A program made the position numbers and the translations under genes. DNA of 64,000 bases, taken from the NCBI GenBank assembly GCA_043732705.1, contig JAYTHE010000006.1, positions 12,284 through 76,283 on the forward strand. Direction: 5' to 3'. Shown in pieces: positions 21,761 to 55,196 of this stretch (within the stretch, counting starts at the first letter, position 1; each line of letters opens with the position of its first letter). The notes beneath the pieces were generated by a model. That model saw only the letters and a list, made by a program, of their open reading frames with translations, ran no database searches and was not told the origin of the DNA. The DNA is from Candidatus Omnitrophota bacterium. Lineage in GTDB: Bacteria; Omnitrophota; Omnitrophia; Omnitrophales; Aquincolibacteriaceae.

Positions 21761-21871
21761 ATGAATCCCGTTAGACTCTTAACCAACGTTGTTATAAATA
21801 ATTATAAATTTATGTGTAGGAAAATTTTGCATTCATACAGATTTTATTTGAAGAGAGTCTAACGGGATGAA
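21761..21871 (+). repeat. family-A ~110-nt MITE-like element flush with the AsmA-like gene start codon
   Basis: See 14521..14631. Confidence 0.6.
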
Positions 21872-40290: not shown

Positions 40291-41090
40291 CACGGATTGT
40301 AATGGCCGGCGCTTGCGGAAGAATGGGGCAATCTATTTTGAGATTGGCGTCACAGGATAAAGCTTTTCAAATCGCGGGCGGAGTGGAACAAAAAGGTCAT
40401 CCGGATTTAGGCCGCGATATCGGAGATGTCCTCGGTTTTAAAAAAACCGGCGCGCAATTAACCTGCGACATGACGACTGCGTCCAAAGGCGCGGATGTGA
40501 TTATTGACTTTACGCACCCGTCGAGTTTGGATAAGCATCTTGAAGCCGCTTTTAAAAATAAAACCGGACTTGTTGTCGGAACCACCGGTTTGACGGATGT
40601 TCACCGCGCAAAATTGAAACTTGCTTCCAAGAAAATTGCGATTGTACAGTCTCCGAATATGAGCGTCGGCGTGAACCTGCTTTTTAAATTAACACAGCTT
40701 GCCGCGGAAGTTTTGGATGAAAGCTATGACATGGAAATTTCCGAGATTCATCATAAGCTGAAAAAAGACGCACCCAGCGGAACAGCGGTTAAGTTGCTTG
40801 AGATTTTAGCTGAAGCTAAAAAAAGAAATTTAAAGCGCGACGCGGTTTATGGGCGCGAAGGTGAAGTCGGTGCCCGTAAGCAGAATGAAATCGGCTGCTT
40901 TGCGCTGCGCGGAGGCGATGTGGTGGGCGAACATCATGTTTTCTTCTTCGGAGCGGGTGAGCGCGTGGAGCTTGTGCATCAAGCAACTTCCCGGGACGCT
41001 TTCGCCAAGGGCGCCCTGGTCGCGGCCGGGTTTTTAGCGAAGAAAAGACACGGGCTTTTCACTATGCAGGATGTGTTAGGGATGGCATAA
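40287..41090 (+). CDS. dapB: 4-hydroxy-tetrahydrodipicolinate reductase
   Basis: MAGACGRMG NAD(P)-binding N-terminus, EIHHKLKKDAPSGTA. Confidence 0.9.
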   Translation: MTRIVMAGACGRMGQSILRLASQDKAFQIAGGVEQKGHPDLGRDIGDVLGFKKTGAQLTCDMTTASKGADVIIDFTHPSSLDKHLEAAFKNKTGLVVGTTGLTDVHRAKLKLASKKIAIVQSPNMSVGVNLLFKLTQLAAEVLDESYDMEISEIHHKLKKDAPSGTAVKLLEILAEAKKRNLKRDAVYGREGEVGARKQNEIGCFALRGGDVVGEHHVFFFGAGERVELVHQATSRDAFAKGALVAAGFLAKKRHGLFTMQDVLGMA

Positions 41091-41130
41091 TACGCCGTTT
41101 AAATTTTTTTAATCGCCTTGCTTATATTGA

Positions 41131-42843
41131 ATGAAAAAAAATCCTTCTAGTTTGATTGCCCTAGTGGGCGTTTTTTGTGTTTTTGCCCTCACGCCGAATC
41201 TTCTTTCGGCGCAAACCTCTTTTTCCGACAATTCCGATATAAAGTCGTCCGATCTCAATTTAGATAAAGAGTTAGACAAGGCTATGGCCAAAGAAGGCAA
41301 ATCTTCTCCGACTCATGTCGCGGGAAAACCTGCACTTGAAACCTCAGCCCAATTGCACAAAGTTAAAGAAGCTCCCAAGCCGAATCTTTTCGCAAAAACA
41401 TTTTTTGCTTCACCCGCGAAAAAATCCGAATCCATCGCGACTGATGTTCAAGGGTTTACTGTGGTTCACACTCCTTCCCGGAAAATGGACTCGGAATATG
41501 CCGTGATCACCGACTTTGGCGGCGAGGTAGTAAAGACCCGATATCTGAAAGGTCTCAAAACAATTGATGACGTGAATGACTATGTTCAAAAGAATTTAGA
41601 AACAGCGGAAGAAGGAAATGTTGAAATTCGCAAAATGAAATTGCCGGGTGAGGGTGGTCAAACTCTTTTTTGGGTGGGCGATAAATCTTTCACCAGCTTG
41701 GATGAGGCTAAACAATGGATCGCGAAAGTTCGCCAGCAGGTTGTGGAGATCGGCGGTAACTTTGATGAAATGGTGAGCGAGGCTCAAACGCCCGTTGAGA
41801 TTGAAAATGAATATGTGACCCAATTTGACCAGCAAGATTACATTCCGAATCAGAAAAAAGAAGAAGATATGGTTTTGAAATGGGCCGATCAAATGGATCT
41901 TGGCGAAGAACTTTGGGGGCCTTTCCATGGCGATCCCGCGGGTGAGCCGATCCTGTGGCAGTCATTCGGTGAAACTACTTATCGTAAAACAAATCTTGAA
42001 GACAACAAATATAATAGTCAGGTCGCGTATTGGACTAACCGGGTTGTTTTACGAGGCATTCGGTTTCCGCTTAACACCTTGGACCCTTACCTTGAAACGA
42101 CCGCGGTTATGGAAGCCGTCTCGGAAGATTATAAAAGCTACGCTGACTTTTTTGCGGGTGTGGAATGGCGGCCGCTCGCGCGCAATCATTGGCTTGAAAA
42201 TTACCGTCCGATAGGCAATATCAGTATTTTAAAATGGATACGTAATTACCGGTTTTATGTTCAGTACGGTGACCGCAAAAACATCAAAGACGAAATTCAG
42301 GCTAAAGATTGGGATTATCAAGCCGGCGTGCAAATGTTTTATGAGTTTGGAGTTGAACTTCCGGATTTGAGTCAGCCGGCCCCCGAAAGTTTCCCCGAAT
42401 ATTTACAGGAATATGTTTGGGGTGAGTATTTCGCGAAATATCGTTACGAACGCACAAGCTTTTCCACAGACAAAGACTCTCGAGCGATCATTCTTGAAAA
42501 CTCGCTGATTTTGGGACTTAAGATGCCTGGCATTCCTTTACCGGAGAATCCCGTAAACAATGAAATTAAACTCATGCCGTATATTCACCTCAATCAAACT
42601 TGGAATGATAACCATTCTTTTTCTTATCAGAACTATTATTATGTCGGCGCGGGCGTGCGCTGGATGCCTTTTAATACATGGCGGCATAAAGAAAACGAAT
42701 GGCTTTCTAAGATTAAAGTATTTGGTGAATGGATTGCGATTGGCAAGACGCAATATGTGAAAGTCGACAGCTCAGAGAATGGCGACAATTTAGTCCGCAA
42801 TGATTTACGTTTCGGCGTCAGCTTCGCGAGCCGCAGATACTAA
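41131..42843 (+). CDS. secreted protein with signal peptide, probable outer-membrane beta-barrel (570 aa, C-terminal ...RFGVSFASRRY)
   Basis: Signal peptide MKKNPSSLIALVGVFCVFALTP...; alternating aromatic/hydrophilic pattern in C-terminal half; terminal aromatic residue. Confidence 0.45.
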   Translation: MKKNPSSLIALVGVFCVFALTPNLLSAQTSFSDNSDIKSSDLNLDKELDKAMAKEGKSSPTHVAGKPALETSAQLHKVKEAPKPNLFAKTFFASPAKKSESIATDVQGFTVVHTPSRKMDSEYAVITDFGGEVVKTRYLKGLKTIDDVNDYVQKNLETAEEGNVEIRKMKLPGEGGQTLFWVGDKSFTSLDEAKQWIAKVRQQVVEIGGNFDEMVSEAQTPVEIENEYVTQFDQQDYIPNQKKEEDMVLKWADQMDLGEELWGPFHGDPAGEPILWQSFGETTYRKTNLEDNKYNSQVAYWTNRVVLRGIRFPLNTLDPYLETTAVMEAVSEDYKSYADFFAGVEWRPLARNHWLENYRPIGNISILKWIRNYRFYVQYGDRKNIKDEIQAKDWDYQAGVQMFYEFGVELPDLSQPAPESFPEYLQEYVWGEYFAKYRYERTSFSTDKDSRAIILENSLILGLKMPGIPLPENPVNNEIKLMPYIHLNQTWNDNHSFSYQNYYYVGAGVRWMPFNTWRHKENEWLSKIKVFGEWIAIGKTQYVKVDSSENGDNLVRNDLRFGVSFASRRY

Positions 42844-42968
42844 ATTAAAGAAACCCCCGAGGTTGTTGAAAGCATCTTCGGGGTTGTGTTGGCTCTGTCA
42901 TCCCCGCGAAGGCGGGGACCCAGGTCAAAAATTTAAAACTAGATTCCCGACCAAGTCGGGAATGACAA

Positions 42969-45900
42969 ATGAAAAAAGAAATTAAAAAAGTAATTTCGGG
43001 ATTGATGATTGCCGCGCTCGTTTTGACGGGTTTGCAGCCGCATGCCTTTGCCCGCGCCATCATGGAGTCCTCGCCGGTTTCAACGGATCCTTTTTCAATT
43101 CACAATTCTTTGATTAATCCGGGCTTTGAAGGCGCTATCAGCAGCGGCTTTGGAAATTGGGATAGTACTAATGGAGTTACGCGTGTAACAACGCCCCCAG
43201 GACTTTTTACAGCCTTCCCTGAAGGAAGCGCGGCGCTTTCCGTTACGCCGGGAACTTTTACTTTTCAGGTTGTGGATCATGTTAAGCCCGGGGATGTTGT
43301 GTCATTTAGTGCTTTGGCATCGTCTAACTTTGCCATCGGCGTTAATGCGGCAGATTTGAAGATAGAATTTAAAAGAATTAATTCCGACGGTAGTGACACT
43401 TTAATTTCAACGGCGCCTCTTTCCTCCAATATAAACGATACAAGCGCTCCTGTTGGGAGTTATACACTTTTTACTGCTTCCGGAGTTGTGCCGGCGGGTG
43501 CGAATCGTGTTATTGCGGTCATTGAGACATCGGGTGGGGCGGCGGCGACTCGCGCTATTATTGATAAGACTGTGATTTCCATTAATCCGACGGCTTTCCG
43601 TGTCGAGCTCTCGAAGCGCAGTGCGAAGGCCGGTGATGTGGTTCCCGCGCGCGTTACTTTTACCAATCAATCTAATAGTACCTTTACCGGTGTCCAATTG
43701 CATACGGTGGTTCCCAAAGGCATGAATGTGAATCTCTCTGAGGTTCGTAATAATGGACAAGACGCGCATGCCACCGAAGGTTCGGTGATTATACCGATCG
43801 GGACCGTCGTTGCGGGCGCTAGCTTCAGCCTCGTGCTTCCGATCGCGATTACCGGTGGAGTGATGCCGGGGCATGTTTACGATCTTGATTTTACTTTGAT
43901 GGATTCTGCGAGCATGCATGAAACCGCGCGCGAACGGCTTTTGATCGAAGAAGACCCGATGTTTGACCAAAGCACTGTGATCGGAAAAGTTTTTCATGAC
44001 CGCAACCGCGACGGCAAACAGCAGGAAGGTGAAGAGGGCATGTCTTTCGTGAACCTTTACACCGAGCAAGGCATTATGGTTACAACCGATGAAAACGGAA
44101 TGTACCATATTCCTAATATGAATCCCGGCCGCCATGTGCTTAAGATTGACGCGCATACTCTTCCCGACAACACAGAATTTATTACCGAAGAATCTTATTT
44201 GTTTAAAAGTACTCCGGGCGTGATGAATAAAGTTAATTTTGCTGTGGCTCCGCGCGGCAAGGCAGATTGGGAAGGCGGCAATCCAAACATGCCTGAGGAC
44301 TTTAAAGGCGACCTCAATGTGCAGATTACGCAGGGTTTGGACACAGCTCCGCCGCAGCTTGACGTGAAGATGGAACCGGATGTTTTACGTTTGGGCGCCG
44401 GCATTTTAGAGCGTCAACCTCTTTTCAGTTTTGACATTAATTATCCGCATGTGGTGAAAAAGTGGATGCTTGAAATTCGCGATGAAATGGGCCGCAAGGT
44501 TTGGTCGGGTTATGGTATTGGAAAACCTCCCGCGGACGTGATGTGGGAAGGATTAACGGACGCGGGCGTTCTGATTCAACCCGGAATTTATTCTTATCAG
44601 TTTAAAGTAGAAGATGACAAAGGCCGGCAGGATTGGACTTTGCTCAAATTTTTCCGTGTCTTTTCAAAGGTCGGGAAAACCGCTGTCGGAGAGGATTGGG
44701 AAGGTTCGCGCAAAGAAGAAAAGGTTTATCAGGCCAGCCCCAAAGCGGATCCGAATTACCGCGAAGAAATTTCACCCGTCGGAAATTTCAATCTTTTTCA
44801 AGACGGGAAACGCAGCATTCCTTTGATTGCCAAACCAACCGTACGTGTACGCGGGCGAACACATCCGGGTTTTAAAGCGTATATCAATGACGCGCCGGTG
44901 GATGTGAATGATGAAACGGGCCGTTTCGATAAAGAATTTTACGTGAAGCCCGGTGAAAATGAATTTGTAATCAATGTCGTTTCACCGGAAGGGGAAAGCA
45001 CGCTTTATACCGAAAAAGTGAAAGTTAAAGACAGTATGTTTTTCATGGTCGGATTGGGCGAGCAGGAATTGGGTAAAAATTTTGGAAAAGGAGCTGTTGA
45101 GACGGCGGGCGGCGATAAGCAGTATCGGGATGGTTTTTATCAGAATGGACGTTTGGCTTATTTTCTGAAAGGTAAGTTGAAAGGAAAATTCCTGATTAAA
45201 TCGAAGTTTGATTCCGGCGATAAGCGTTCGGCGCTTTTTACCAATCTTGATCCCGATCAGTACTATCCGATTTATGGTGATAAATCGCAGATCAGTTATG
45301 AGGGGCTCAATACCGAATCCCGTTTTTACACGCTTGTAGAAATGGACCGCTCTTTTTTACGCTGGGGAAGTTTTCAAACGCAATTTGATGATACCGAATT
45401 AGCCAGCTATAACCGCACGCTTTCCGGTTTACAGGTTCACCACGAATCGCTACAAACCACGCCTTACGGCGACCCTAAACGCGGCTTTAAAGTTTTTTGG
45501 TCTGAAAGCAAAAATCGGTCAGCGCATGTGGAGCTCGAATCCACCGGCGGGACACTTTATTATCTGCGCGATCGCAATATTGTTCAGGGCAGCGAACAGC
45601 TGCATGTTGAGATCCGGGATAAACTGCAGGACATTTCCATCGGCCGCTATGATCTGAAAGAAGGTGCGGATTATGAAATTGATTATGAATCCGGCAGAAT
45701 TATGCTCACTCGTCCGCTTTCATCGCTTGCCGCGCCGAACACGCTTTTTTCAACCGACCTGGCTGACGGCAACAGAATTTTTTTAACGGCTGATTATGAA
45801 TATGTCGCTGGCTTTGATCCCGCGAAAGTCGGAGATCGCGGCGCGCGCGGCTATGTGCATTTGGGCGACCACATTCGTGTGGGCGGAACACTTGTTGAAG

Positions 45901-47738
45901 AAAAGCGTGACGCGGTGGATTACGATATGCGCGGAGTCGACATGACCATGAAATTCGGCCGCAATACGCGCATTATTTCGGAGTATGCTACGACCATCAA
46001 TCAGCAGGGAGACCAGACGGTTTCTTATGACGGAGGTTTGACATTCGCGAATCTGGGGCCGCTTTCGGACCGCAAAGATGAAGCTCGCAGCCGCGCTTAT
46101 TTAATTAAAGCTGAAAGTAAACCGGTTAAGAACTTAGAAGTGAGCGGATTTTTACAAGGCGTATCGCCGGGCTTTTCAAATGATACTTTGAAAAGCCAGG
46201 AAGGTTATAAAAAGTATGGTTTCGCGAGTCGTTATCGTTTGACGGACAATTTACACGCCAAATACCGCTATGATCATAATGAGATCACAGACAGCCTGCT
46301 GCCGTTGACTTCCAGTTCCGTTTTAGCACCGTATGAAAATATGAACGCGCATACGCTGGGCCTGACTTATGACGATGGCCTTTGGCTCGCAGAGACTGAA
46401 TATCTTCACCGAACCCTTGATGGTCCTGACAATGAAAGCCGTGTTTCGCCTTCGCTTGAATCCGAAATTCCTTTTAATGACGGTGTGGTCTCCAAATTAG
46501 GATACCGCGTGAATGACAAATTCATGCCTTATGCCAAGGCACAAACTTCCTTTCATACGAAGGGTGACACGCAGCTTGGCGGCGGCATGCGCTATGAAGT
46601 TGCGCAAAATCTTTACGCTTACCTTGAACAGATGTTCGGTAAAATCGGAGATTCCACTTTATTTGGAATTGAAAAGCATCACGGCAATGGATCAAGCACT
46701 TATGCCAATTTAAAATCACTCGACCGTGGTATTGGCTACAAAACATTGACGACCGCGGTCGGCAGTAATTATTTCATGGATAACGGTTCGCGGCTTTATT
46801 CGGAGCGCGAAATCACGACCTACAATGCCAAAGATGGCTTTGCCGACATTATGGGTTACGATGGCAAGGCCGGTGATCATTGGGATTACGGCGGACGTTT
46901 TGAGCGCCGCCGTCTGCAGGATTCAACCACCCAGCGTTTAGATATTTTAGCCAGCAGCGCCCTTGCGCGCGCGAATGCTTATAACACCGTGGGCGCACAT
47001 GTGGCCTACATTGGTACGGAACAAAGAGAAGGCGCGGGCGCGGCTCAGCATTATTCTCCTTTCGATAAACTGAAAGCACGCGTTTCGGGCGAAGTTCGTA
47101 AAGATCAAAATAACCCCAATCTTTGGCAGGTGGTAACGCGTGATTCCGTTGAATACAAAATAACCCGTGATTTAAATTTTATGACCTACTTGAATTCCGG
47201 CGTGACGCATTTAACAAAGCATGTTTTTAATGCTGATTTTATGGAGTGGAATACAGGCTTTGCCTACCGCCCGATCAATTTCGACCGTCTCAATTTACTG
47301 ACGCGTTATACTTATGTTGAAAACAATCTTGATTATTTACAGTTGAGCGGCAAGCTGGATAGCTCGGCGCACATTATTCAGCTTGATGCGTCCTATGACG
47401 TGAACCGTTATTTTGAGATTGTTGAGAAGGTTGGTTTCAAGCGCGCGGTCGCGTCTTATTTTTCTGATGATGCCATACTGAATTCGATGCTTTGGGCAAA
47501 CCGCATTAACTTTCACGTTACACGGAAATGGGATGTCGCGACAGAGTATCGCATCCTTTTTCAGGGGAATGCCGCGGACACGAAAAAACACGGAGCTCTT
47601 TTTGAAGTGGACCGCGAAATTTATGAATATGTGCGTGTCGGCGCCGGTTATGACTTTGCTAATTTTACCGATGACCTGAGAAAGGCCAACAACTACTCAA
47701 GTCACGGGCCTTTTGTCCGTATGACAGGGAAGTTCTAA
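42969..47738 (+). CDS. giant (1589 aa) outer-membrane protein: signal peptide, CBM4_9-like N-domain (LINPGFEG...W), DUF11-like repeat, Cna-B/SdrD-B-like domain, very large C-terminal beta-barrel-like region ending ...FVRMTGKF
   Basis: Domain motifs read from the translation; C-terminal Phe and ~1000 aa of beta-strand-like alternation. Confidence 0.5.
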   Translation: MKKEIKKVISGLMIAALVLTGLQPHAFARAIMESSPVSTDPFSIHNSLINPGFEGAISSGFGNWDSTNGVTRVTTPPGLFTAFPEGSAALSVTPGTFTFQVVDHVKPGDVVSFSALASSNFAIGVNAADLKIEFKRINSDGSDTLISTAPLSSNINDTSAPVGSYTLFTASGVVPAGANRVIAVIETSGGAAATRAIIDKTVISINPTAFRVELSKRSAKAGDVVPARVTFTNQSNSTFTGVQLHTVVPKGMNVNLSEVRNNGQDAHATEGSVIIPIGTVVAGASFSLVLPIAITGGVMPGHVYDLDFTLMDSASMHETARERLLIEEDPMFDQSTVIGKVFHDRNRDGKQQEGEEGMSFVNLYTEQGIMVTTDENGMYHIPNMNPGRHVLKIDAHTLPDNTEFITEESYLFKSTPGVMNKVNFAVAPRGKADWEGGNPNMPEDFKGDLNVQITQGLDTAPPQLDVKMEPDVLRLGAGILERQPLFSFDINYPHVVKKWMLEIRDEMGRKVWSGYGIGKPPADVMWEGLTDAGVLIQPGIYSYQFKVEDDKGRQDWTLLKFFRVFSKVGKTAVGEDWEGSRKEEKVYQASPKADPNYREEISPVGNFNLFQDGKRSIPLIAKPTVRVRGRTHPGFKAYINDAPVDVNDETGRFDKEFYVKPGENEFVINVVSPEGESTLYTEKVKVKDSMFFMVGLGEQELGKNFGKGAVETAGGDKQYRDGFYQNGRLAYFLKGKLKGKFLIKSKFDSGDKRSALFTNLDPDQYYPIYGDKSQISYEGLNTESRFYTLVEMDRSFLRWGSFQTQFDDTELASYNRTLSGLQVHHESLQTTPYGDPKRGFKVFWSESKNRSAHVELESTGGTLYYLRDRNIVQGSEQLHVEIRDKLQDISIGRYDLKEGADYEIDYESGRIMLTRPLSSLAAPNTLFSTDLADGNRIFLTADYEYVAGFDPAKVGDRGARGYVHLGDHIRVGGTLVEEKRDAVDYDMRGVDMTMKFGRNTRIISEYATTINQQGDQTVSYDGGLTFANLGPLSDRKDEARSRAYLIKAESKPVKNLEVSGFLQGVSPGFSNDTLKSQEGYKKYGFASRYRLTDNLHAKYRYDHNEITDSLLPLTSSSVLAPYENMNAHTLGLTYDDGLWLAETEYLHRTLDGPDNESRVSPSLESEIPFNDGVVSKLGYRVNDKFMPYAKAQTSFHTKGDTQLGGGMRYEVAQNLYAYLEQMFGKIGDSTLFGIEKHHGNGSSTYANLKSLDRGIGYKTLTTAVGSNYFMDNGSRLYSEREITTYNAKDGFADIMGYDGKAGDHWDYGGRFERRRLQDSTTQRLDILASSALARANAYNTVGAHVAYIGTEQREGAGAAQHYSPFDKLKARVSGEVRKDQNNPNLWQVVTRDSVEYKITRDLNFMTYLNSGVTHLTKHVFNADFMEWNTGFAYRPINFDRLNLLTRYTYVENNLDYLQLSGKLDSSAHIIQLDASYDVNRYFEIVEKVGFKRAVASYFSDDAILNSMLWANRINFHVTRKWDVATEYRILFQGNAADTKKHGALFEVDREIYEYVRVGAGYDFANFTDDLRKANNYSSHGPFVRMTGKF

Positions 47739-47770
47739 CTCGAGTTGTTTTCGTTCTGAGCTATTTCTTC

Positions 47771-47859
47771 TTGCTTCTGCGCATTGCACAACCAGCGAAG
47801 TAGCTCAACTGCGGTTTGCGTGGCACAGTTTTTTTGCTCTGTGCTTCACACAACTGCAA
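47771..47859 (+). repeat. cluster of two or more family-C REP-like elements between the giant OMP gene and the lipoprotein gene
   Basis: TTGCTTCTGCGCATTGCACAACCAGCGAA and TTTTTTTGCTCTGTGCTTCACACAACTGCAA. Confidence 0.45.
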
Positions 47860-47887
47860 TTTGCATTAATTTTTAAACGGAGGAACT

Positions 47888-48295
47888 ATGCGATCAAAAT
47901 ATTTGGCCGGGACGTATTTATGTTTTGCGCTTGGCTTGGCCGCCTGTGCGGGATCCCAAAAATATCTTCCGATTGAACAAATTCCCGCCGGAAACAACGA
48001 AGAAATTCACGTTGCGAAGGCTTATGACTTTGTTTATCTGAATGTTTTTGATACGGTGAATGCTCTTCCTGACTGGGCTCCGGATAAGACCTTGAAAGAT
48101 GAGGGGCTGATTCGTTTGAAGAACACGCAGTTTTCACGCTTTGATGACTCAAGCAATCGTGTTATTAATCTTCATATCCGCCGCGATAGCGCGCTGCAAA
48201 CAAGCGTTTACCTCGATCCTGACTCCCGTCGTGTCATCGGCGCGGATCAAGTTTTGGCTGCGATCCGCAAAAAGTTCAGCATCCCGGCAGCTTGA
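47888..48295 (+). CDS. small lipoprotein (lipobox LAAC)
   Basis: MRSKYLAGTYLCFALGLAACAGSQ signal/lipobox; stop overlaps uvrA TTG start. Confidence 0.5.
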   Translation: MRSKYLAGTYLCFALGLAACAGSQKYLPIEQIPAGNNEEIHVAKAYDFVYLNVFDTVNALPDWAPDKTLKDEGLIRLKNTQFSRFDDSSNRVINLHIRRDSALQTSVYLDPDSRRVIGADQVLAAIRKKFSIPAA

Positions 48296-51105
48296 GTTCG
48301 ATTGAGCTGCGTCGTGTTTCAACCCATAATTTAAAAGGGTTCGACCTCCGGCTTTCCCATCGCAAAATTCATGTTATGACCGGTGTCTCCGGCTCCGGAA
48401 AATCTTCTTTGGCATTTGATACGCTGTATGCCGAGGGCCAGCGCCGCTATATGGAATCGCTTTCTTCGTACGCTCGTCAGTTTCTTGAAAAAATGCCCAA
48501 GCCGGATATTGAATCTGCGACAGGGATCCCTCCTGCCGTTGCGATCCAAGCCAAAAACGTTGTTTCCAACGCAAGGTCGACAGTCGGCACTCAAACCGAA
48601 GTGAACGATTATTTACGGTCGCTTTTTGCGCGCGTAGGACATTTGCATTGCCCTGATTGCCAAGGCACGGAAGTGACCGCCTACCAAACAGACTCTGTTT
48701 TAAACCAGATTTGCGGCGAAAAAGCAGACCGTTTGACGGTATTTTTCCCTTTTATGCTAAAAAAGAATTCAAAGAGTGAAGCGGAGGCGCTGGCCTCGGA
48801 CTTTCTGAAACAGGGTTTTGAGCGCTTTTCCGAACCCGGCAAAGAATGGATTTCGATTCAAGCCGACAAGCTTACCGGGAAAAAAGTCCGCGAGATTGCC
48901 GTGCTTGTCGATGAGCTTGCAAATACCGCATCCAATCGAAACCGGATAAGAGAGGCTCTCGAATTGGCTTTTCAGGCGGGGCAGGGACGGGTAGGTGTGA
49001 TAAGCGGGAAAGCCACGCAATGGTTTTCAAAAGATCTGCAATGCTCTTCCTGCCGCCGTATTTTTAAAAAGCCGACTGAAAACTCTTTTTCATTCAATAG
49101 TCCGATCGGGGCCTGTCCGGTTTGCCAGGGTTTTGGACGGGTGATTGAAACCGATTGGAATTTAGTTATTCCGGATGAGTCCAAATCAATTCAAGAAGGC
49201 GTGATTGAGCCTTGGACCAAAGCCAGTACACGCTGGGAATTAGGGCAGCTGCTCGATTTTTGTAAACGTAAAAAAATCTCAGTTAAAGTTCCATGGAAAG
49301 AGCTTGAACCTAAACAGCGTAAATGGATTTTATATGGCTGCGAGGGAGATGAGTTCGCGTCCGTAACCGAGTTTTTTAAATATCTCGAAAAGAAAACTTA
49401 CAAAATGCATATCCGCATTTTTTTAAACCGCTACCGCGGCTATGCGGTTTGTCCCGCCTGCAAAGGTGTGCGGATTCAACCCGACGCTTTAAACGTATTT
49501 GTCGGCAGGAAAAATTTTGCGGATATTCAGGAAATTAAAATCAACGCGTTGGCGCTTTTTTTCAGAGATTTAAAGTTAACTTCTTATGAAACCGAAAGAG
49601 CGGAAGCGCTTTTGGATGAAATTCGCGCGCGCCTCGGCTTTTTAAGCGAAGTCGGTTTGGGATATTTGACGCTTTCGCGGATGTCGCGCACGCTTTCCGG
49701 CGGCGAAGTTGAAAGAATTCATTTGGCATCATCGCTCGGCGCTTCGTTGGTTGACACGCTGTATGTTTTGGATGAGCCGAGCATCGGATTGCATGAGCGT
49801 GATAATCAGATGTTGATTGGGCTTTTACGAAAGCTGAGAGATTTGGGAAATACCGTGGTTGTTGTGGAGCATGACCGTACGATGATCGAAGCTGCCGATG
49901 AGGTGGTTGATTTAGGGCCGCGCGGCGGCGAAGGCGGCGGAAAAATTCTTTACCAGGGCCCGGTAGCGGGGCTTTTACAATGTGAAGAATCGCTGACAGG
50001 GCGTTACCTGTCGGGACGCGAGACGCTATCACGTTTAAGCTCTGCGTTCGCGCAACCGCGACAACAGGCAAAGGCGATAAAAATTTTGGGTGCTTCCGCA
50101 CACAATTTAAAGAATTGCGATGTTGAAATTCCTTTGGGGAAACTTGTCGTGCTTTCGGGTGTTTCAGGTTCGGGGAAGAGCACCTTACTTTATGATGTGT
50201 TGTACAACCGTTATCAAAAATACCGCGGCCGCGCCATTTCACAGGAAGACTTGGGAGCGGTGAAGTCGATTCGCGGCTGGGATACGCTTGGAGATATGGT
50301 TTTGATCGATCAATCGCCGATTGGGCGTTCCCCGCGGTCAAATCCCGTGACTTATATGGGTATTTACGATGAAATCCGCAAAATATTTTCGCGGCTTCCC
50401 GCGTCCAAAGCGCAGGGGTTTGGTCCTGGACATTTTTCATTTAATGTGGACGGCGGACGCTGCAATGCCTGCAAAGGCGACGGCGAAGTCAAAGTTGAAA
50501 TGCATTTTCTTGCGGATGTTTATGTGCGCTGTGAAGCCTGCGGCGGAAAGCGTTTTCAACGGGACGTGCTTGCGATTACCTATCAGGGAAAAAATATCGA
50601 CAAAGTTTTGGGAATGACCGTAACCGAGGCGCTGAATTTTTTTTCAAAGTCGCCCGCAATCGTGAAATCTTTGACGATTCTAGAAAATACGGGGCTGGGT
50701 TATTTGCGTTTGGGTCAGCCGACATTGACTCTTTCGGGCGGGGAAGGACAAAGGCTTAAATTAGCGAGCGAGCTGGCCGCATCGCAATCTTCAAAGCAGC
50801 TTTATCTTTTTGATGAGCCGACAACGGGCTTGCATGAACATGATATCCGCTATCTGATCAAAGCTTTTGACGAATTGCTTGCGCGGGGACATTCCGTGCT
50901 GGTGATCGAGCATCACATGGAATTAATTCGACTTGCCGATTGGGTGATTGATCTAGGTCCCGAAGGCGGAGATGCCGGCGGCGAAGTGGTTTATCAAGGC
51001 GACGTAAAAGGCCTGCTCAAATGCGCACGGTCGCATACGGGGCGCTGTTTATCGCAATACCTCCAAAAAACAAGTTTGAAGATTCCCGCTCTTCAAACGT
51101 CTTAA
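48292..51105 (+). CDS. uvrA: excinuclease ABC subunit A
   Basis: THNLK...GVSGSGKSSLAFDTLYAEGQRRY, two ABC ATPase modules, zinc-finger Cys pairs; TTG start. Confidence 0.9.
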   Translation: MSSIELRRVSTHNLKGFDLRLSHRKIHVMTGVSGSGKSSLAFDTLYAEGQRRYMESLSSYARQFLEKMPKPDIESATGIPPAVAIQAKNVVSNARSTVGTQTEVNDYLRSLFARVGHLHCPDCQGTEVTAYQTDSVLNQICGEKADRLTVFFPFMLKKNSKSEAEALASDFLKQGFERFSEPGKEWISIQADKLTGKKVREIAVLVDELANTASNRNRIREALELAFQAGQGRVGVISGKATQWFSKDLQCSSCRRIFKKPTENSFSFNSPIGACPVCQGFGRVIETDWNLVIPDESKSIQEGVIEPWTKASTRWELGQLLDFCKRKKISVKVPWKELEPKQRKWILYGCEGDEFASVTEFFKYLEKKTYKMHIRIFLNRYRGYAVCPACKGVRIQPDALNVFVGRKNFADIQEIKINALALFFRDLKLTSYETERAEALLDEIRARLGFLSEVGLGYLTLSRMSRTLSGGEVERIHLASSLGASLVDTLYVLDEPSIGLHERDNQMLIGLLRKLRDLGNTVVVVEHDRTMIEAADEVVDLGPRGGEGGGKILYQGPVAGLLQCEESLTGRYLSGRETLSRLSSAFAQPRQQAKAIKILGASAHNLKNCDVEIPLGKLVVLSGVSGSGKSTLLYDVLYNRYQKYRGRAISQEDLGAVKSIRGWDTLGDMVLIDQSPIGRSPRSNPVTYMGIYDEIRKIFSRLPASKAQGFGPGHFSFNVDGGRCNACKGDGEVKVEMHFLADVYVRCEACGGKRFQRDVLAITYQGKNIDKVLGMTVTEALNFFSKSPAIVKSLTILENTGLGYLRLGQPTLTLSGGEGQRLKLASELAASQSSKQLYLFDEPTTGLHEHDIRYLIKAFDELLARGHSVLVIEHHMELIRLADWVIDLGPEGGDAGGEVVYQGDVKGLLKCARSHTGRCLSQYLQKTSLKIPALQTS

Positions 51106-51151: not shown

Positions 51152-51736
51152 ATGAATCTTTTTACTTCCAAGAAACATTTTTACATGGCGGGATATCTGT
51201 TGTTGATAGGTTTTTTACATGTGAATGCCATTTTGAAAGCGGAGGATCCGATTGCGGACACGCAAACAGAAGCCATTTCTTATGATCAAAAAATGGAACA
51301 AGATAAAGATGGAGTCAAAGCTCCGGCAACTCCCAAAATGATTTATTACGGCGGACAGGGGTTTTTAACCCGGAGTTCCTTGTCGAAATACGAAAATGAA
51401 ATTGCTTCTGCTTCAAAGGGCAAGAAAAAAGAAAAATTCAACTGGTCCGATTGGTGGGAAGATAAGCCATCTGAAACTCAAACGGACACGGCAGAAATTA
51501 AGCCTGCGGAAACAGTTGAGCCGGAAATACTTCAAGGCACGGATTTGCCGGCGGCGAAAGACAGTAGTTTGGATTCACAGCAAACGGATATAAAAGAAAA
51601 AAAGACGGATGAAAAACCGGCCGGTTCGGCTCAAACCGTCTTGGAAGAAGAAAGTTTCCCAGGGGAAGAAAGTGCGGCTCCGGATCAATCTCAGCCTCCC
51701 GCAGGGGGGAATACGAAGGGTGACGATTGGTGGTAG
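51152..51736 (+). CDS. hypothetical secreted/membrane-anchored acidic low-complexity protein (ends ...GDDWW)
   Basis: N-terminal hydrophobic segment then E/D/K/T-rich disordered sequence. Confidence 0.4.
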   Translation: MNLFTSKKHFYMAGYLLLIGFLHVNAILKAEDPIADTQTEAISYDQKMEQDKDGVKAPATPKMIYYGGQGFLTRSSLSKYENEIASASKGKKKEKFNWSDWWEDKPSETQTDTAEIKPAETVEPEILQGTDLPAAKDSSLDSQQTDIKEKKTDEKPAGSAQTVLEEESFPGEESAAPDQSQPPAGGNTKGDDWW

Positions 51737-51913: not shown

Positions 51914-53593
51914 ATGGTCATGAAAAAACGCCGCTTACAGCTTTTCTTTATTGAGCATGGTGGAACCATGGGTGTGATTGCGGGCGCCTTGGTCTTGATC
52001 GCGTTATGTGCATGGGGATTGATGAGCCTCGAAAGTTATTATCGAAATATTACTCTTGCTCAGATTCCGCTTAATTTTCTTTCGGTGATCGTGAATGCGG
52101 TTGTATTCGCTTACATCTACATGAACATGATGGGCCGCGGCTTTTCAGGTATCGGAAAGAAAGGTATTAAGGCCAATCAGGTTAATATTAAGTTTGATGA
52201 CGTGGTGGGAATTGATGAAGCAAAAGATGAATGCCGTGAAGTTGTGGACTTAATCAAAGATCACACCCGTCTTAAAAATATCGGCGGAAAAATTCTGCGC
52301 GGCGTTCTCATGATCGGGCCTCCGGGCTGCGGGAAAACCTATATTGCGAAAGCAATCGCGACTGAAACCGGCTTACCGTTTCTTTCTATGGCGGCCAGCG
52401 AATTCAACGAAGTGTTTGTGGGTGTTGGTGCAAGCCGTGTCCGTCAGCTTTTCAAAAAAGCACGCCGTTTGGCTTATGGCTATGGCGGCTGCGTGATATT
52501 TATCGACGAACTTGATGCCATGGGGCAAAAGCGTACTTTCAGCCAATTTGGCAGCGGCGAAGGCAATACGACCCAAAACCAGTTGCTTGTGGAGTTGGAT
52601 GGATTGGGTGGCGGTGCGACTGAGAATATTGTCGTCATCGGCGCGACCAACGCTTCCGAAGATATTTTGGATCCCGCGCTTTTGCGTCCGGGCCGTCTTG
52701 ACCGCAAAGTTTATATCAACAAGCCTAATTTGGAAGGCCGCGAAGCCGTGTTTAATCTTTATCTTAAAAAAGTAAAACATGATTCGAGCGTCGACCCCAA
52801 ACGTTTGGCGCGTCGCGCAATCGGTTATTCTCCCGCAGAAATTGAAAACGCGGTAAAAGAATCCGCGCTTGTAGCAACACGCAACAAACGCGACGTGATT
52901 ACTTGGAGCGATATGACGGAAGCCTTGGACCGTATTGAGCTTGGTTTCAAAATTAAACTGACGATTAATTCAAGAGAACGTGAAATGACGGCTTATCACG
53001 AAACGGGTCATTTGATTATCACGTATTTGCTTCATCCACGCGACGATGTCTTTAAGGCGTCTATTTTGCCGCGTAAAAACACCTTGGGTGTGGTTTACCA
53101 TGTTCCTTTGGAAGAGTGGCACACGCAAGACAAGGAGTCCTTAACAGCTCAAATCAAGATTGCTTTGGGCGGATTTGCCGGAGAACGCGTCAAATATGGA
53201 ACATCCACATCGGGTGTTTCTTCGGATTTTAAATCTGCGATGGGAGTTGCGCATACCATGGTTTGGAAATTGGGTATGGGGCCGTCCAGCCTTGTCGGAG
53301 ATTTTACAGTTGTGCCCGAAGGGCAATTATCGCGCGAAGTGGTGACTCAGTTGAGTCAAGATACTCAAAAAATTCTTACGGATTGTTTGAAAGAAGTAGA
53401 AGATTTATTGCGCAAAGAAAAGCCGTTGTTTGAACGTTTTGCCCAAGAATTAATTTCTAAAGGCGAGTTGCAGTATGACGAAATTGAGGCGATTTTTGCT
53501 GAGTTTGGGAAGGTCAATCCCAGAAAATTCGGCGGATCGGTTGCTTCTGCTGCTTCTGCGGACTCGAAGTATTTGCCGCCGTCTGCGCGTTAA
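51914..53593 (+). CDS. FtsH-family ATP-dependent zinc metalloprotease paralog with minimal periplasmic loop
   Basis: Two N-terminal TM helices ~14 aa apart, Walker A GPPGCGKT, second region of homology, HETGH zinc motif; 559 aa. Confidence 0.8.
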   Translation: MVMKKRRLQLFFIEHGGTMGVIAGALVLIALCAWGLMSLESYYRNITLAQIPLNFLSVIVNAVVFAYIYMNMMGRGFSGIGKKGIKANQVNIKFDDVVGIDEAKDECREVVDLIKDHTRLKNIGGKILRGVLMIGPPGCGKTYIAKAIATETGLPFLSMAASEFNEVFVGVGASRVRQLFKKARRLAYGYGGCVIFIDELDAMGQKRTFSQFGSGEGNTTQNQLLVELDGLGGGATENIVVIGATNASEDILDPALLRPGRLDRKVYINKPNLEGREAVFNLYLKKVKHDSSVDPKRLARRAIGYSPAEIENAVKESALVATRNKRDVITWSDMTEALDRIELGFKIKLTINSREREMTAYHETGHLIITYLLHPRDDVFKASILPRKNTLGVVYHVPLEEWHTQDKESLTAQIKIALGGFAGERVKYGTSTSGVSSDFKSAMGVAHTMVWKLGMGPSSLVGDFTVVPEGQLSREVVTQLSQDTQKILTDCLKEVEDLLRKEKPLFERFAQELISKGELQYDEIEAIFAEFGKVNPRKFGGSVASAASADSKYLPPSAR

Positions 53594-53615
53594 GAACGCT
53601 GTTCTAAGCCGCATT

Positions 53616-55196
53616 ATGGCGAATAAACAAAAATCAGTCCTTCGCAAAGTTGCGCAAGGACTGATTTTTGTTTTTATGCCGATTTTGCTACTTTCCGCGT
53701 GTTTGAAAAGTACTTATCCTGAAAACTACGTCAAAGAATCCATTCTTAAAATTCTTCGTACGGAATACAGCATTCCCATGGCCCAGGTTGAGATTACCGG
53801 GAAAACGATTCATCTCTACCTGCCTGTCGAACGTTTGTTTACGGCGGACCTTGATGATATTAAAGTCTCTTTTGTGAGAATTTTGGGCATTCCCGTAAAA
53901 AATGGTTTTGTCGTGTGGACTGCACGTATTCTCTCGGGTCCGCAGGACGGTTATTGGGAATTGCTGGCGAGAATGTATCACGCGGAGCTTCTCCGCTGGT
54001 TCAAAATGGATTGGGTTGAGACGAAAGCAGAAAAGAAAAAAATCGAAAAAATTCAAGACGCGATTGAACTTCACCCCGAAGTTCAGGATGAGATCGGTCA
54101 AATGTTGTTCGCGGTGGCGCGCGTCGCACGCAGTACGGATCTCAAGCTTGATTTTTATGCCGCGCAAATTACAGACGTGAGATCAGGGCATGAATTTATT
54201 CTGCAGGGCTATTTGCAGGATATGAATCGCTTGCAGCTCATGGATATTTCTCAGGCCGAGTATCACAAGCGTATGCTGAAAGACACGCATGTGAATAACC
54301 GCGCACAAGTTCATTTTCCGGTGCGGAACTTTTTTTTAGATTTGAATCAAAAAACACGGGAAGACGTGCAGCAAAAGTATTTTGAAAAACTCACTTCTTT
54401 GGATTGGATGGACCGGTTCTATTTTAGAGACAAGAAGAAAAAGCTGTTTCCGGTTTCACAGATGACTTGGGAGATTGAGGATATTCGCAGCTTTTTAAGC
54501 CCCGCCGGCGGGCGTGCGTTGGTCTATGTAAAAACGGAAATGCTTTCGCGCACCGATCAGAAGACCGTAAAACCCCTGGAAGAAGAGTTTTTATTTGAAA
54601 TTTTGATTCGGAGCAAGTCGGTTCAAATTTTACGGATCATTCCGTTCAGTCTTTTAAATGAGATGTTGGCGGGCATGCCGGAATTTAATATGAGCGAAAA
54701 GACATTGCAGGAAAATATCAAGACATGGCGTTCGGAATTTGAACCAAAAGAAATTTTTCTCGAAGATTTTTTAGCCAAACAAATGATGATGCGCCTTTAC
54801 GATGATATTTATCAGGATGAACGCATCGCGAATACCTTTACCGACCTGCACTTTGAAGTCCGTTTCCGGCGTGAGCCCAAACGTGAATTTGTTTTTGAGG
54901 TGCGTCCAGCGTTAAAAGACCCGAAGGCCATTACTTCGGGCAGGCCTTTGTCGGAGCATGAGGACATGGTTTATTTGGAGAATCAATTTGTAAGCCGTGC
55001 GGCAGCCACTTTCCATAGTTATGGGTATAAAGATTTTGAAAATATGACAATCGAGCTTCCCGCTGAGGGCGAGAGGCTCATCGTGTCACCGGACCATTTA
55101 GAGCTCTTTTACCGCAAGAAGAAGCGCTTGGGAGATGTTTTACTGCGTGACAGTAACCCTATTCCGTCTGAGGAAACAGTTCCCCAAGGCAATTGA
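53616..55196 (+). CDS. large lipoprotein of unknown function (526 aa, lipobox LLSAC)
   Basis: Start placed at MANKQK ATG (53616); the track start at 53475 would overlap the FtsH-like 3' end. Confidence 0.5.
   Translation: MANKQKSVLRKVAQGLIFVFMPILLLSACLKSTYPENYVKESILKILRTEYSIPMAQVEITGKTIHLYLPVERLFTADLDDIKVSFVRILGIPVKNGFVVWTARILSGPQDGYWELLARMYHAELLRWFKMDWVETKAEKKKIEKIQDAIELHPEVQDEIGQMLFAVARVARSTDLKLDFYAAQITDVRSGHEFILQGYLQDMNRLQLMDISQAEYHKRMLKDTHVNNRAQVHFPVRNFFLDLNQKTREDVQQKYFEKLTSLDWMDRFYFRDKKKKLFPVSQMTWEIEDIRSFLSPAGGRALVYVKTEMLSRTDQKTVKPLEEEFLFEILIRSKSVQILRIIPFSLLNEMLAGMPEFNMSEKTLQENIKTWRSEFEPKEIFLEDFLAKQMMMRLYDDIYQDERIANTFTDLHFEVRFRREPKREFVFEVRPALKDPKAITSGRPLSEHEDMVYLENQFVSRAAATFHSYGYKDFENMTIELPAEGERLIVSPDHLELFYRKKKRLGDVLLRDSNPIPSEETVPQGN

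Follow-up and report, generated by a model that had tools for sequence, protein, structure and literature searches.

A predicted ~38-strand outer-membrane barrel from a widespread unnamed family, encoded beside a smaller predicted barrel and a lipoprotein in Omnitrophota

Several kinds of very large outer-membrane barrel have been described, and the 36-strand barrel of SprA, from the type IX secretion system (T9SS; PDB 6H3I, 8GL6, 8GL8), has been called the largest known (bioRxiv 10.64898/2026.03.07.710327). Deinococcus SlpA combines a 30-strand barrel with a coiled coil and an SLH domain (PDB 7ZGX, 8AE1), and D. radiodurans also encodes three predicted 38-strand barrels with N-terminal immunoglobulin (Ig)-like domains of the invasin D3 type (AAF11946, UID71982 and UID69687; PMC9388160, SI Table S3). 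Among surface proteins, the repeat domain DUF11 is now called CLIPPER, and an “OmpA-anchored fibrillar adhesin” architecture has been described, for example in Acinetobacter silvestris B9T28_05395; the terms “outer membrane” and “barrel” are absent from that paper (PMC12617251). Here we analyze three neighboring genes in a 64,000-nucleotide (nt) stretch of a Candidatus Omnitrophota genome (contig JAYTHE010000006.1, positions 12,284 to 76,283; referred to below, at its full length, as the window). The open reading frame (ORF) list and translations confirm the three + strand genes of the preliminary description, which encode a 570-amino acid (aa) outer-membrane protein (41131..42843), a giant 1,589-aa outer-membrane protein (42969..47738) and a 135-aa lipoprotein (47888..48295). 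Our favored interpretation, held with moderate confidence, is that this outer-membrane trio is centered on a ~38-strand barrel from a widespread unnamed family and constitutes a membrane platform for Ig-repeat surface proteins.

The central element is the C-terminal module of the giant protein (aa 690-1589; 45036..47735, + strand), which is predicted to form a ~38-strand outer-membrane beta-barrel. For residues 440-1589, AlphaFold2 returned a model with a pLDDT of 76 and a pTM of 0.68 from an alignment of 43 sequences that one phylum dominated. In this model, the Ig-like domains are followed by 37 strands of 8-16 residues and one short strand (aa 1015-1019), giving about 38. When the strand table is read in the 38-strand register, eight of the nine loops of at least 14 aa (a 187-aa insert included) fall on one face, and the turns on the other face are 2-7 residues long, with a single exception of 19 aa. 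As modeled, this alternation of long and short loops is the usual outer-membrane pattern. The insert itself (aa 749-935; 45213..45773, + strand), delimited from the model and from invariant alignment columns, follows barrel strand 3 and holds a compact beta domain (aa 786-913) with a pLDDT of 85-91. Comparison of the model with the PDB by Foldseek returned only large outer-membrane barrels, none of them close: Deinococcus SlpA was the top match, and SprA, the FimD usher, TonB-dependent transporters (FhuA), MtrB and LptD were also found, with match probabilities near 1 and TM-scores of just 0.13-0.2. Because the fold matches are all outer-membrane barrels and all have low TM-scores, the module models as a large outer-membrane barrel without a close solved relative. 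The preliminary description had proposed barrel character for the last ~1000 residues, well over 20 strands and a likeness to very large barrels. The modeling agrees on each count and makes the likeness to SlpA, SprA and LptD a distant one; by sequence conservation, the module occupies aa 691-1589. That description had also named a non-barrel structure prediction as a result that would speak against it; the AlphaFold2 model and the fold matches instead point to an outer-membrane barrel, and the outer-membrane reading of the locus is supported.

Sequence conservation defines the same unit. The conserved module comprises 899 aa (aa 691-1589), ends in GKF and can be aligned over its whole length with the C-terminal parts of proteins in other phyla, including a 2,534-aa Rhodothermales protein (P0026) with which it shares 28% identity over 998 aligned positions (E 2e-83). 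Its last strand, GPFVRMTGKF, resembles a beta-signal in the alignment (47706..47735, + strand; terminal Phe); G1587 and K1588 are invariant, and the family consensus terminates in an aromatic residue, so that the C-terminal Phe noted earlier is one instance of a family-wide feature. The insert carries the most conserved motifs of the whole module family (YYPVYGD, TGGSLYYLR and DYEIDYxxGRI). We defined family membership by full-length similarity together with the motifs [DE]xxYYPxYGD, TGGSLYYLR and DYEIDYxxGR and a terminal GK[FYW]; the window protein belongs to the family by construction, because it was the query.

With an exhaustive HMMER search, we recovered 2,642 representatives (clusters at 50% identity), 816 of them at E ≤ 1e-30, in proteins of ~630-7,600 aa, many of which match best over module residues 1-340 or 1-630. 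In the 158 full-module matches, the module lies at the exact C-terminus or before a short tail, which contains TPR in three scanned proteins and OmpA in one (P0030). Carriers amount to at least 524 species genomes (one genome was scanned per species, with the insert motifs used as patterns) and span Omnitrophota, Planctomycetota, Acidobacteriota, Bdellovibrionota, Nitrospinota, Elusimicrobia and many Proteobacteria. Among the cultured carriers are Leucothrix arctica, Halopseudomonas pelagia, Arenimonas caeni, Lysobacter, Hydrogenophaga and Sinorhizobium. No Pfam or NCBIfam entry covers the module, nor does any PDB entry, also when searched with its profile, and the matches to OMP_b-brl and DUF2490 in relatives are weak and sub-threshold. 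Database names of relatives are “hypothetical,” “SdrD B-like domain-containing,” “OmpA family” or “TonB-dependent receptor.” The last of these is probably a misannotation, since Plug and TonB_dep_Rec are absent from every family member scanned; a TonB-dependent receptor was rejected as an identity for the window protein on the same searches, which covered that protein, its orthologues and distant members. Among plasmid matches, PGAP names seven “TonB-dependent receptor” (H3, H6, H9, H10, H12, H13 and H17) and one “outer membrane protein transport protein” (H11). Our literature search found no paper describing this barrel family, and the sole related item was the set of 38-strand Deinococcus entries cited above.

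The part of the giant protein that precedes the module is made of smaller domains. Reading the translation by eye, we identified a signal peptide (MKKEIKKVISGLMIAALVLTGLQPHAFA; 42969..43052, + strand) with a K-rich n-region, a hydrophobic core and a final ..HAFA followed by R, a Sec-type signal by inspection and in keeping with the preliminary description. The orthologue alignment then delimits a conserved N-terminal domain (~aa 45-205; 43101..43583, + strand) with the motif N-x-G-F-E...N-W...FTFQ, possibly a beta-sandwich. This region had been likened to a carbohydrate-binding module (CBM) of family CBM4_9 (PF02018), a comparison that we could not sustain: no CBM family matches the giant protein at E ≤ 0.1 or its 23 orthologues at E ≤ 0.01, and CBM4_9 does not match any of five N-terminal domains even at E ≤ 10. 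These five domains gave one weak HpiC1-like match (E 3e-4), and the profile of the domain matched no PDB sequence. CBM4_9 was thus rejected for want of any hidden Markov model (HMM) support, and the label remains a motif-level guess.

Residues 214-293 (43608..43847, + strand) are best described from sequence as a divergent DUF11-like (CLIPPER-like) domain. The DUF11 repeat reported earlier falls below the Pfam cut-off in the giant protein itself (PF01345, 22.6 bits against 24.6; TIGR01451, 15.7 against 24), but 7 of 23 orthologues give a DUF11 match at E ≤ 0.01, and in alignments with distant relatives the region pairs with their DUF11-SdrD_B stretches. The Cna-B/SdrD-B-like domain, also reported earlier, is firmer: SdrD_B (PF17210) scores 32.3 bits against a gathering threshold of 29.7 and is present in all 23 orthologues. 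The Pfam match covers aa 340-395 of a CnaB-type domain at ~aa 336-427 (43974..44249, + strand), and the same region of the Rhodothermales protein is 42% identical over 113 aa. Between this domain and the barrel, aa 449-686 (44313..45026, + strand) are modeled as Ig-like beta-sandwiches, with weak FlgD_ig and Glucodextran_B matches there in orthologues. An NCBIfam scan gave nothing above cut-off, and the giant protein compared with PDB sequences gave nothing meaningful.

Across the wider family, the module occurs in a fused and a split form. In the fused form, ~600 to >2,300 residues of repeat domains precede the module in the loci examined, and up to ~6,700 do so in protein matches. The split form has the module in a secreted protein of its own, ~1,200-1,260 aa long, and at 18 such loci the barrel ORF lies directly behind a large ORF (~490 to >1,990 aa, most of them cut by the end of the locus). 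The barrel start overlaps the upstream stop in 15 of the 18, usually by 4 nt. Domains found in the upstream partners are DUF11, DUF7507 (CLIPPER_2), He_PIG, CshA_repeat, PKD and SdrD_B, and three of the four partners scanned end in OmpA. Split pairs are present in RefSeq for Sinorhizobium meliloti T073 (WP_198388080.1, a DUF11 protein, then WP_088196626.1) and Eleftheria terrae (WP_301261129.1, then WP_301261128.1). The giant protein of the window relates to both halves: its residues 213-431 align with the DUF11-SdrD_B tails of split adhesins, and residues 451-775 align with the N-terminal part of split barrel proteins. By these alignments, the window protein amounts to an adhesin tail fused to the barrel partner of that adhesin.

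Split loci of cultured Proteobacteria (L076 3-9628, L089 3-9646, L052 3-9712, L082 1-6851, L210 1-11754 and L211 1-11694) have a barrel protein of ~1,200-1,400 aa behind a giant DUF11/CLIPPER_2/He_PIG/CshA-repeat gene, mostly ending in DUF11-SdrD_B-OmpA. Start and stop overlap in most of them, with a 72-nt gap in Eleftheria terrae, and the pair looks like an undescribed two-gene adhesin-plus-barrel module. A different arrangement is seen at three distant loci (L006 1636-5777, L007 5952-7883 and L008 4778-7923), where two smaller secreted DUF11 proteins, one small and conserved (~160 aa) and one mid-size, are encoded directly before a fused barrel gene. The small proteins share 28-32% identity, and the arrangement points to minor subunits of a fibre-like system.

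A giant outer-membrane barrel with fused Ig-like domains is a known kind of protein, and its likeness to SlpA, SprA, ushers and autotransporters holds at the level of fold or logic. The D. radiodurans proteins of Table S3 share the stated architecture and strand count of the giant protein, in a comparison made by description only. SlpA, the top fold match, differs in that the window protein has neither SLH domain nor coiled coil; a connector between outer membrane and peptidoglycan of the SlpA/OmpM type was rejected because the combination of an SLH or other peptidoglycan-binding domain with a coiled coil is missing, although some distant relatives carry OmpA. SprA, with 36 strands against ~38, shares no sequence or HMM similarity with the giant protein, aligns at TM 0.15-0.19 and has other N-terminal domains. 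Membership of that family was rejected, as there was no match to its HMM and the neighbors of the trio are dap genes, uvrA and ftsH, with no T9SS genes seen nearby.

The architectural parallels extend to other secretion systems. As in type Va and Ve autotransporters, an Ig-like/repeat passenger is fused to a C-terminal barrel with a beta-signal, and the fused and split forms of the module parallel the fused and two-partner (type Vb) forms of type V systems. In contrast, type V barrels have 12 or 16 strands rather than ~38, the giant protein has no Autotransporter, ShlB or POTRA HMM match, and the scanned split adhesins, unlike type V passengers, mostly end in a periplasmic OmpA domain; autotransporter membership was rejected because the defining domains are missing. 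The FimD/PapC ushers (24 strands with an inserted plug) match in fold and likewise have a globular beta-domain inserted between barrel strands, and the mechanism proposed below, in which an Ig-like fibre passes through the barrel, resembles theirs. The insert of the usher plug comes after strand 6, that of the giant protein after strand 3. Chaperone-usher membership was rejected in the absence of any Usher or chaperone HMM match and of an adjacent chaperone gene. LptD/LptE, a 26-strand barrel with a lipoprotein plug, offers a fold match among large barrels and, in the trio, a small lipoprotein gene adjoins the barrel gene; however, the giant barrel is much larger and its N-terminal domains are Ig-like rather than a beta-jellyroll bridge, and no OstA, LptD or LptE HMM match was found, so that membership was rejected here too. 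Finally, the split upstream proteins, with CshA/He_PIG/CLIPPER repeats and mostly an OmpA end, resemble the OmpA-anchored CLIPPER adhesins (PMC12617251), whose DUF11-SdrD_B tail the window protein bears. It departs from those adhesins in having one weak CLIPPER-like domain, no OmpA and a fused barrel.

The two partners encoded beside the giant gene are also envelope proteins. The 570-aa protein begins with a Sec-type signal peptide (aa 1-27; ..LLSA followed by Q, read by eye), followed by a low-confidence linker (aa 22-81), an alpha/beta domain (~aa 100-220) that is presumably periplasmic, and a beta-barrel (aa 274-567). Its structure model has 12 long strands, and the fold matches to that region are outer-membrane barrels; the protein thus models as a 12-strand outer-membrane barrel. 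The sequence ends in ...FGVSFASRRY, with an aromatic end that is conserved in the homologue alignment; the aromatic terminus after beta-like sequence that had been noticed before is this Tyr. A Pfam scan of 42 homologues gave no match, and the profile of the protein gave nothing meaningful against PDB sequences. In the 135-aa protein, the lipobox LAAC with Cys20, read by eye from the translation, agrees with its earlier identification as a lipoprotein. A Cys at the end of the signal region is present in all four homologues, offset in the alignment, and neither the protein nor these four have a Pfam match, nor does the protein have a PDB match.

The trio is found adjacent across the phylum. In a set of species-representative Omnitrophota loci with module identity ≥39%, a homologue of the 570-aa protein is encoded directly upstream at every orthologue locus that has upstream DNA. 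In 15 species loci, its gene and the giant gene overlap by up to 4 nt or stand up to 45 nt apart, and in one more locus the start call is ambiguous. Immediately after the giant gene, 16 Omnitrophota loci encode the lipoprotein, which is absent in L001/L002. Co-location elsewhere, which the preliminary description had proposed as a check, is therefore seen for the small barrel wherever the DNA exists and for the lipoprotein in most loci. At one locus (L004), other genes stand in place of the upstream dap genes, yet the trio is intact. Outside Omnitrophota, neither partner adjoins the module, nor do they at three distant Omnitrophota copies (L037, L051 and L058). Full-length orthologues of the giant protein number more than 120, at 1,520-1,620 aa, and its named close homologues are all Candidatus Omnitrophota/Omnitrophica metagenome-assembled genomes or unclassified “bacterium.” Named homologues of the 570-aa protein are nearly all from Omnitrophota as well, the exceptions being one “Verrucomicrobiae” and one “bacterium.” Adjacency of the three genes is suggestive of a complex.

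From these data we propose that the trio represents chromosomal, phylum-conserved envelope genes of Omnitrophota with the following division of labor. Gene 1 would provide a 12-strand outer-membrane barrel with an N-terminal alpha/beta domain, presumably on the periplasmic side. Gene 2 would encode a Sec-exported protein whose first ~690 residues form soluble beta-sandwich domains and whose last 900 form one ~38-strand barrel, in which a conserved beta-domain follows strand 3 as an insert and the C-terminus bears a BAM-type signal (...GKF), and gene 3 would add a small lipoprotein. The wide barrel could then act as an outer-membrane anchoring or passage platform for an Ig-repeat chain, the base of which would be retained in the periplasm and lumen while the chain passes through the barrel to the surface. 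The small barrel and the lipoprotein of Omnitrophota may be accessory subunits such as a gate or a plug. The main basis of the anchoring or passage proposal is the pattern of fusion and fission between the module and adhesin-like proteins, which suggests that the module family is an anchoring or export platform. An extended version, which we put forward tentatively and consider distinctly less probable than the platform itself, is that these proteins are a new class of ~38-strand single-chain barrels that serve as conduit and anchor for folded CLIPPER/SdrD_B fibres, either fused or OmpA-anchored and encoded by the preceding gene. They would then represent a new, widespread surface-display or secretion route of diderm bacteria, with an Omnitrophota-specific three-protein complex possibly used for host attachment.

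Several observations weigh against a platform for surface proteins. In the model, the even strand number places the N-terminal domains on the periplasmic side, and surface exposure would for this reason need threading through the lumen. The strand count (37 DSSP segments and one 5-residue strand), the closure of the barrel and the placement of the N-terminal domains relative to it were all taken from the strand table, not from coordinates. The passenger of the window protein is short (~650 aa) and without OmpA, and may be unlike the giant adhesin systems in behavior. Our literature search found no experimental data on any member of the module family. Moreover, the block dapF-dapA-dapB ... uvrA ... 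ftsH-hrcA-grpE is itself syntenic across the phylum, so that adjacency alone does not prove a complex. This last point raises the possibility, which we regard as lesser though real, that the three genes are neighbors solely through inherited gene order and have no joint function. The flanks (dapF-dapA-dapB and uvrA-x-ftsH-x-hrcA-grpE) are conserved too, and L001/L002 does without the lipoprotein; however, the trio persists in L004, where the dap genes have been replaced, the small-barrel and giant genes overlap or are separated by 45 nt at most in 15 species loci, and the three proteins all belong to the envelope and share a restriction to one phylum. A second reading, in our view rather unlikely, takes the giant protein for a structural envelope scaffold or large porin whose Ig-like, SdrD_B and DUF11 domains stay in the periplasm, as in SlpA/OmpM connectors, with no role as adhesin or in export. 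SlpA complexes are indeed the best Foldseek matches, an even ~38 strands would start the barrel on the periplasmic side, the giant gene is conserved phylum-wide inside a housekeeping block, and in D. radiodurans the three predicted 38-strand barrels with N-terminal Ig-like domains are counted among envelope barrels (PMC9388160, SI Table S3). Set against this are the lack of an SLH, OmpA, LysM or coiled-coil peptidoglycan-binding segment in the window protein and the coupling of the module family to adhesin-type repeats of up to ~6,700 aa before the barrel, which would be hard to fit in the periplasm.

The barrel could also be a translocon for other cargo, that is, a SprA- or usher-like pore with a PorV-like 12-strand partner, a LptE- or Plug-like lipoprotein plug and Ig-like periplasmic adaptors. 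SprA and FimD are among the top fold matches, the conserved domain inserted in the barrel resembles the usher plug arrangement, and a conserved set of large barrel, small barrel and lipoprotein would suit such a machine. We nevertheless judge it improbable: no Pfam or NCBIfam match to SprA, Usher, LptD/OstA or LptE was detected, the neighboring ORFs scanned include no T9SS or chaperone gene, and the window locus offers no candidate cargo gene. In addition, the small barrel and the lipoprotein are absent from module loci outside Omnitrophota and thus are not general partners of the module. Least probable of all, to the point of being hardly tenable, is that the last 900 residues are a soluble beta-rich solenoid or sandwich array that AlphaFold over-predicts as a barrel. 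The confidence of the model is moderate (pLDDT 76), the alignment is dominated by one phylum, and the barrel is read from a strand table rather than coordinates. Yet the aromatic C-terminal signal is conserved family-wide, the module invariably ends the protein or precedes TPR or OmpA domains of periplasmic type, relatives show weak OMP_b-brl and DUF2490 matches, and long and short loops alternate along the module.

What appears to be undescribed in the literature searched is the size of the barrel, the conserved insert, the unannotated breadth of the family, its coupling to CLIPPER adhesins and the Omnitrophota-specific partners. If the model is right, barrels of this family are at least as large as SprA (36 strands), the largest single-chain beta-barrel whose structure has been solved. 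It is also common (2,642 clusters and at least 524 species), yet without a Pfam, NCBIfam or PDB entry or an informative name. The AlphaFold Database (AFDB) omits un-curated proteins of more than 1,280 residues (bioRxiv 10.64898/2026.03.07.710327), and the family may have escaped large-scale barrel surveys because of this omission. The strict coupling of the module to giant CLIPPER/Ig-repeat proteins would provide a testable answer to the question of how OmpA-anchored Gram-negative fibrillar adhesins cross the outer membrane. In Omnitrophota, which are ultra-small, host-dependent cells with a presumed host-attached way of life, the trio represents a conserved envelope feature specific to the phylum and a candidate surface structure.

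The 125-nt spacer before the giant gene contains several inverted repeats. A hairpin just 3' of the 570-aa stop (CCCCGAGG...CUUCGGGG; 42855..42883, + strand), seen as an inverted repeat and by RNA folding, received no intrinsic-terminator call in a consensus scan. It is followed by a palindromic doublet, TGTCATCCCCGCGAAGGCGGGGACCCAG ... CTAGATTCCCGACCAAGTCGGGAATGACA (42896..42967, not assigned to a strand), that ends 1 nt before the giant ATG and resembles repetitive extragenic palindromic (REP) sequences and REPINs. Its inverted repeats (42901-42907/42912-42918 and 42943-42951/42955-42963) are perfect, and an outer inverted pair, TGTCATCCCCG/CGGGAATGACA, lies at 42896-42906/42957-42967. The preliminary description had reported GNRA-capped hairpins at this site bracketed by TGTCAT...ATGACA. 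Both stems and the bracketing pair are there, but the loops are GAAG and CAA, and since these are their sequences neither is GNRA. It placed the hairpins on the ribosome-binding site and start of the giant gene; in the sequence, they lie at most 6 nt before the ATG and cover a purine-rich GGGAA stretch.

The distribution of the doublet speaks to its origin. At least 120 unrelated metagenome stretches, with a GC content of 30-72%, contain its 22-nt core (GTCATCCCCGCGnAGGCGGGGA). None of them encodes the three proteins, and an inverted ...CTGGATTCCCGCnnnCGCGGGAATGAC copy very often lies 20-60 nt from the core. Like REP/REPIN elements, it is a short GC-rich palindrome with conserved flanks (GTCATCCCCGCGnAGGCGGGGAtCCAG), dispersed and often in inverted doublets 20-60 nt apart; a single doublet is present in the 64-kb window. 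The same doublet stands at the same site in a 74%-identical orthologue locus (L009), with loop GCAG and a shorter second stem that pairs perfectly, and is absent from that site in L001, L029 and all other Omnitrophota loci. Thus, the doublet is one copy of a REP/REPIN-like element that is ubiquitous and that entered this site in a single lineage, and the hairpins are not gene-specific, because core and doublet are dispersed in unrelated stretches and missing from the other Omnitrophota loci. It may incidentally occlude the GGGAA stretch before the ATG. That the two hairpins are instead a gene-specific regulatory RNA controlling translation of the giant protein seems to us quite unlikely. Such a role would fit their position over the only upstream purine-rich stretch, the spacer folding far better than shuffled sequences (z = -5.65) and the conservation in L009, where even the shortened stem still pairs. 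It sits poorly with the occurrence of core and doublet architecture in unrelated stretches that have no related genes, with the empty site in the remaining Omnitrophota loci and with the lack of any Rfam family in 40900-48500. The metagenome scan led us to reject a gene-specific riboswitch or leader, and an intrinsic terminator or promoter role is unsupported, as the counts do not exceed those in shuffles.

Housekeeping genes flank the trio on the same strand, with lysA-like decarboxylases, dapF, dapA and dapB upstream and uvrA and ftsH downstream. The lipoprotein stop overlaps the first listed uvrA start (TTG, 48292) at 48292-48295; the gap between these genes is 9-61 nt in other Omnitrophota loci, and the uvrA start in the window may for that reason be further downstream. 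Two ORFs near ftsH, at 51152-51736 (194 aa) and 53475-55196 (573 aa), have no Pfam domain, and Pfam-less genes stand at equivalent positions (in the uvrA-ftsH interval and after ftsH) in the Omnitrophota loci L001, L003 and L004. The true start of the 573-aa ORF is probably later than listed, given its 119-nt overlap with the end of ftsH. Elsewhere in the window, 21867-24317 encodes an 816-aa protein with a weak, sub-threshold match to YhdP, of the AsmA-like envelope lipid-transport family, and 3236-5455 encodes an adenylate/guanylate cyclase domain fused to a CHASE2 sensor domain. Across the whole window (1-64000), the large ORFs are nearly all on the + strand and GC skew is above 0 in every 2-kb bin, consistent with a long leading-strand stretch.

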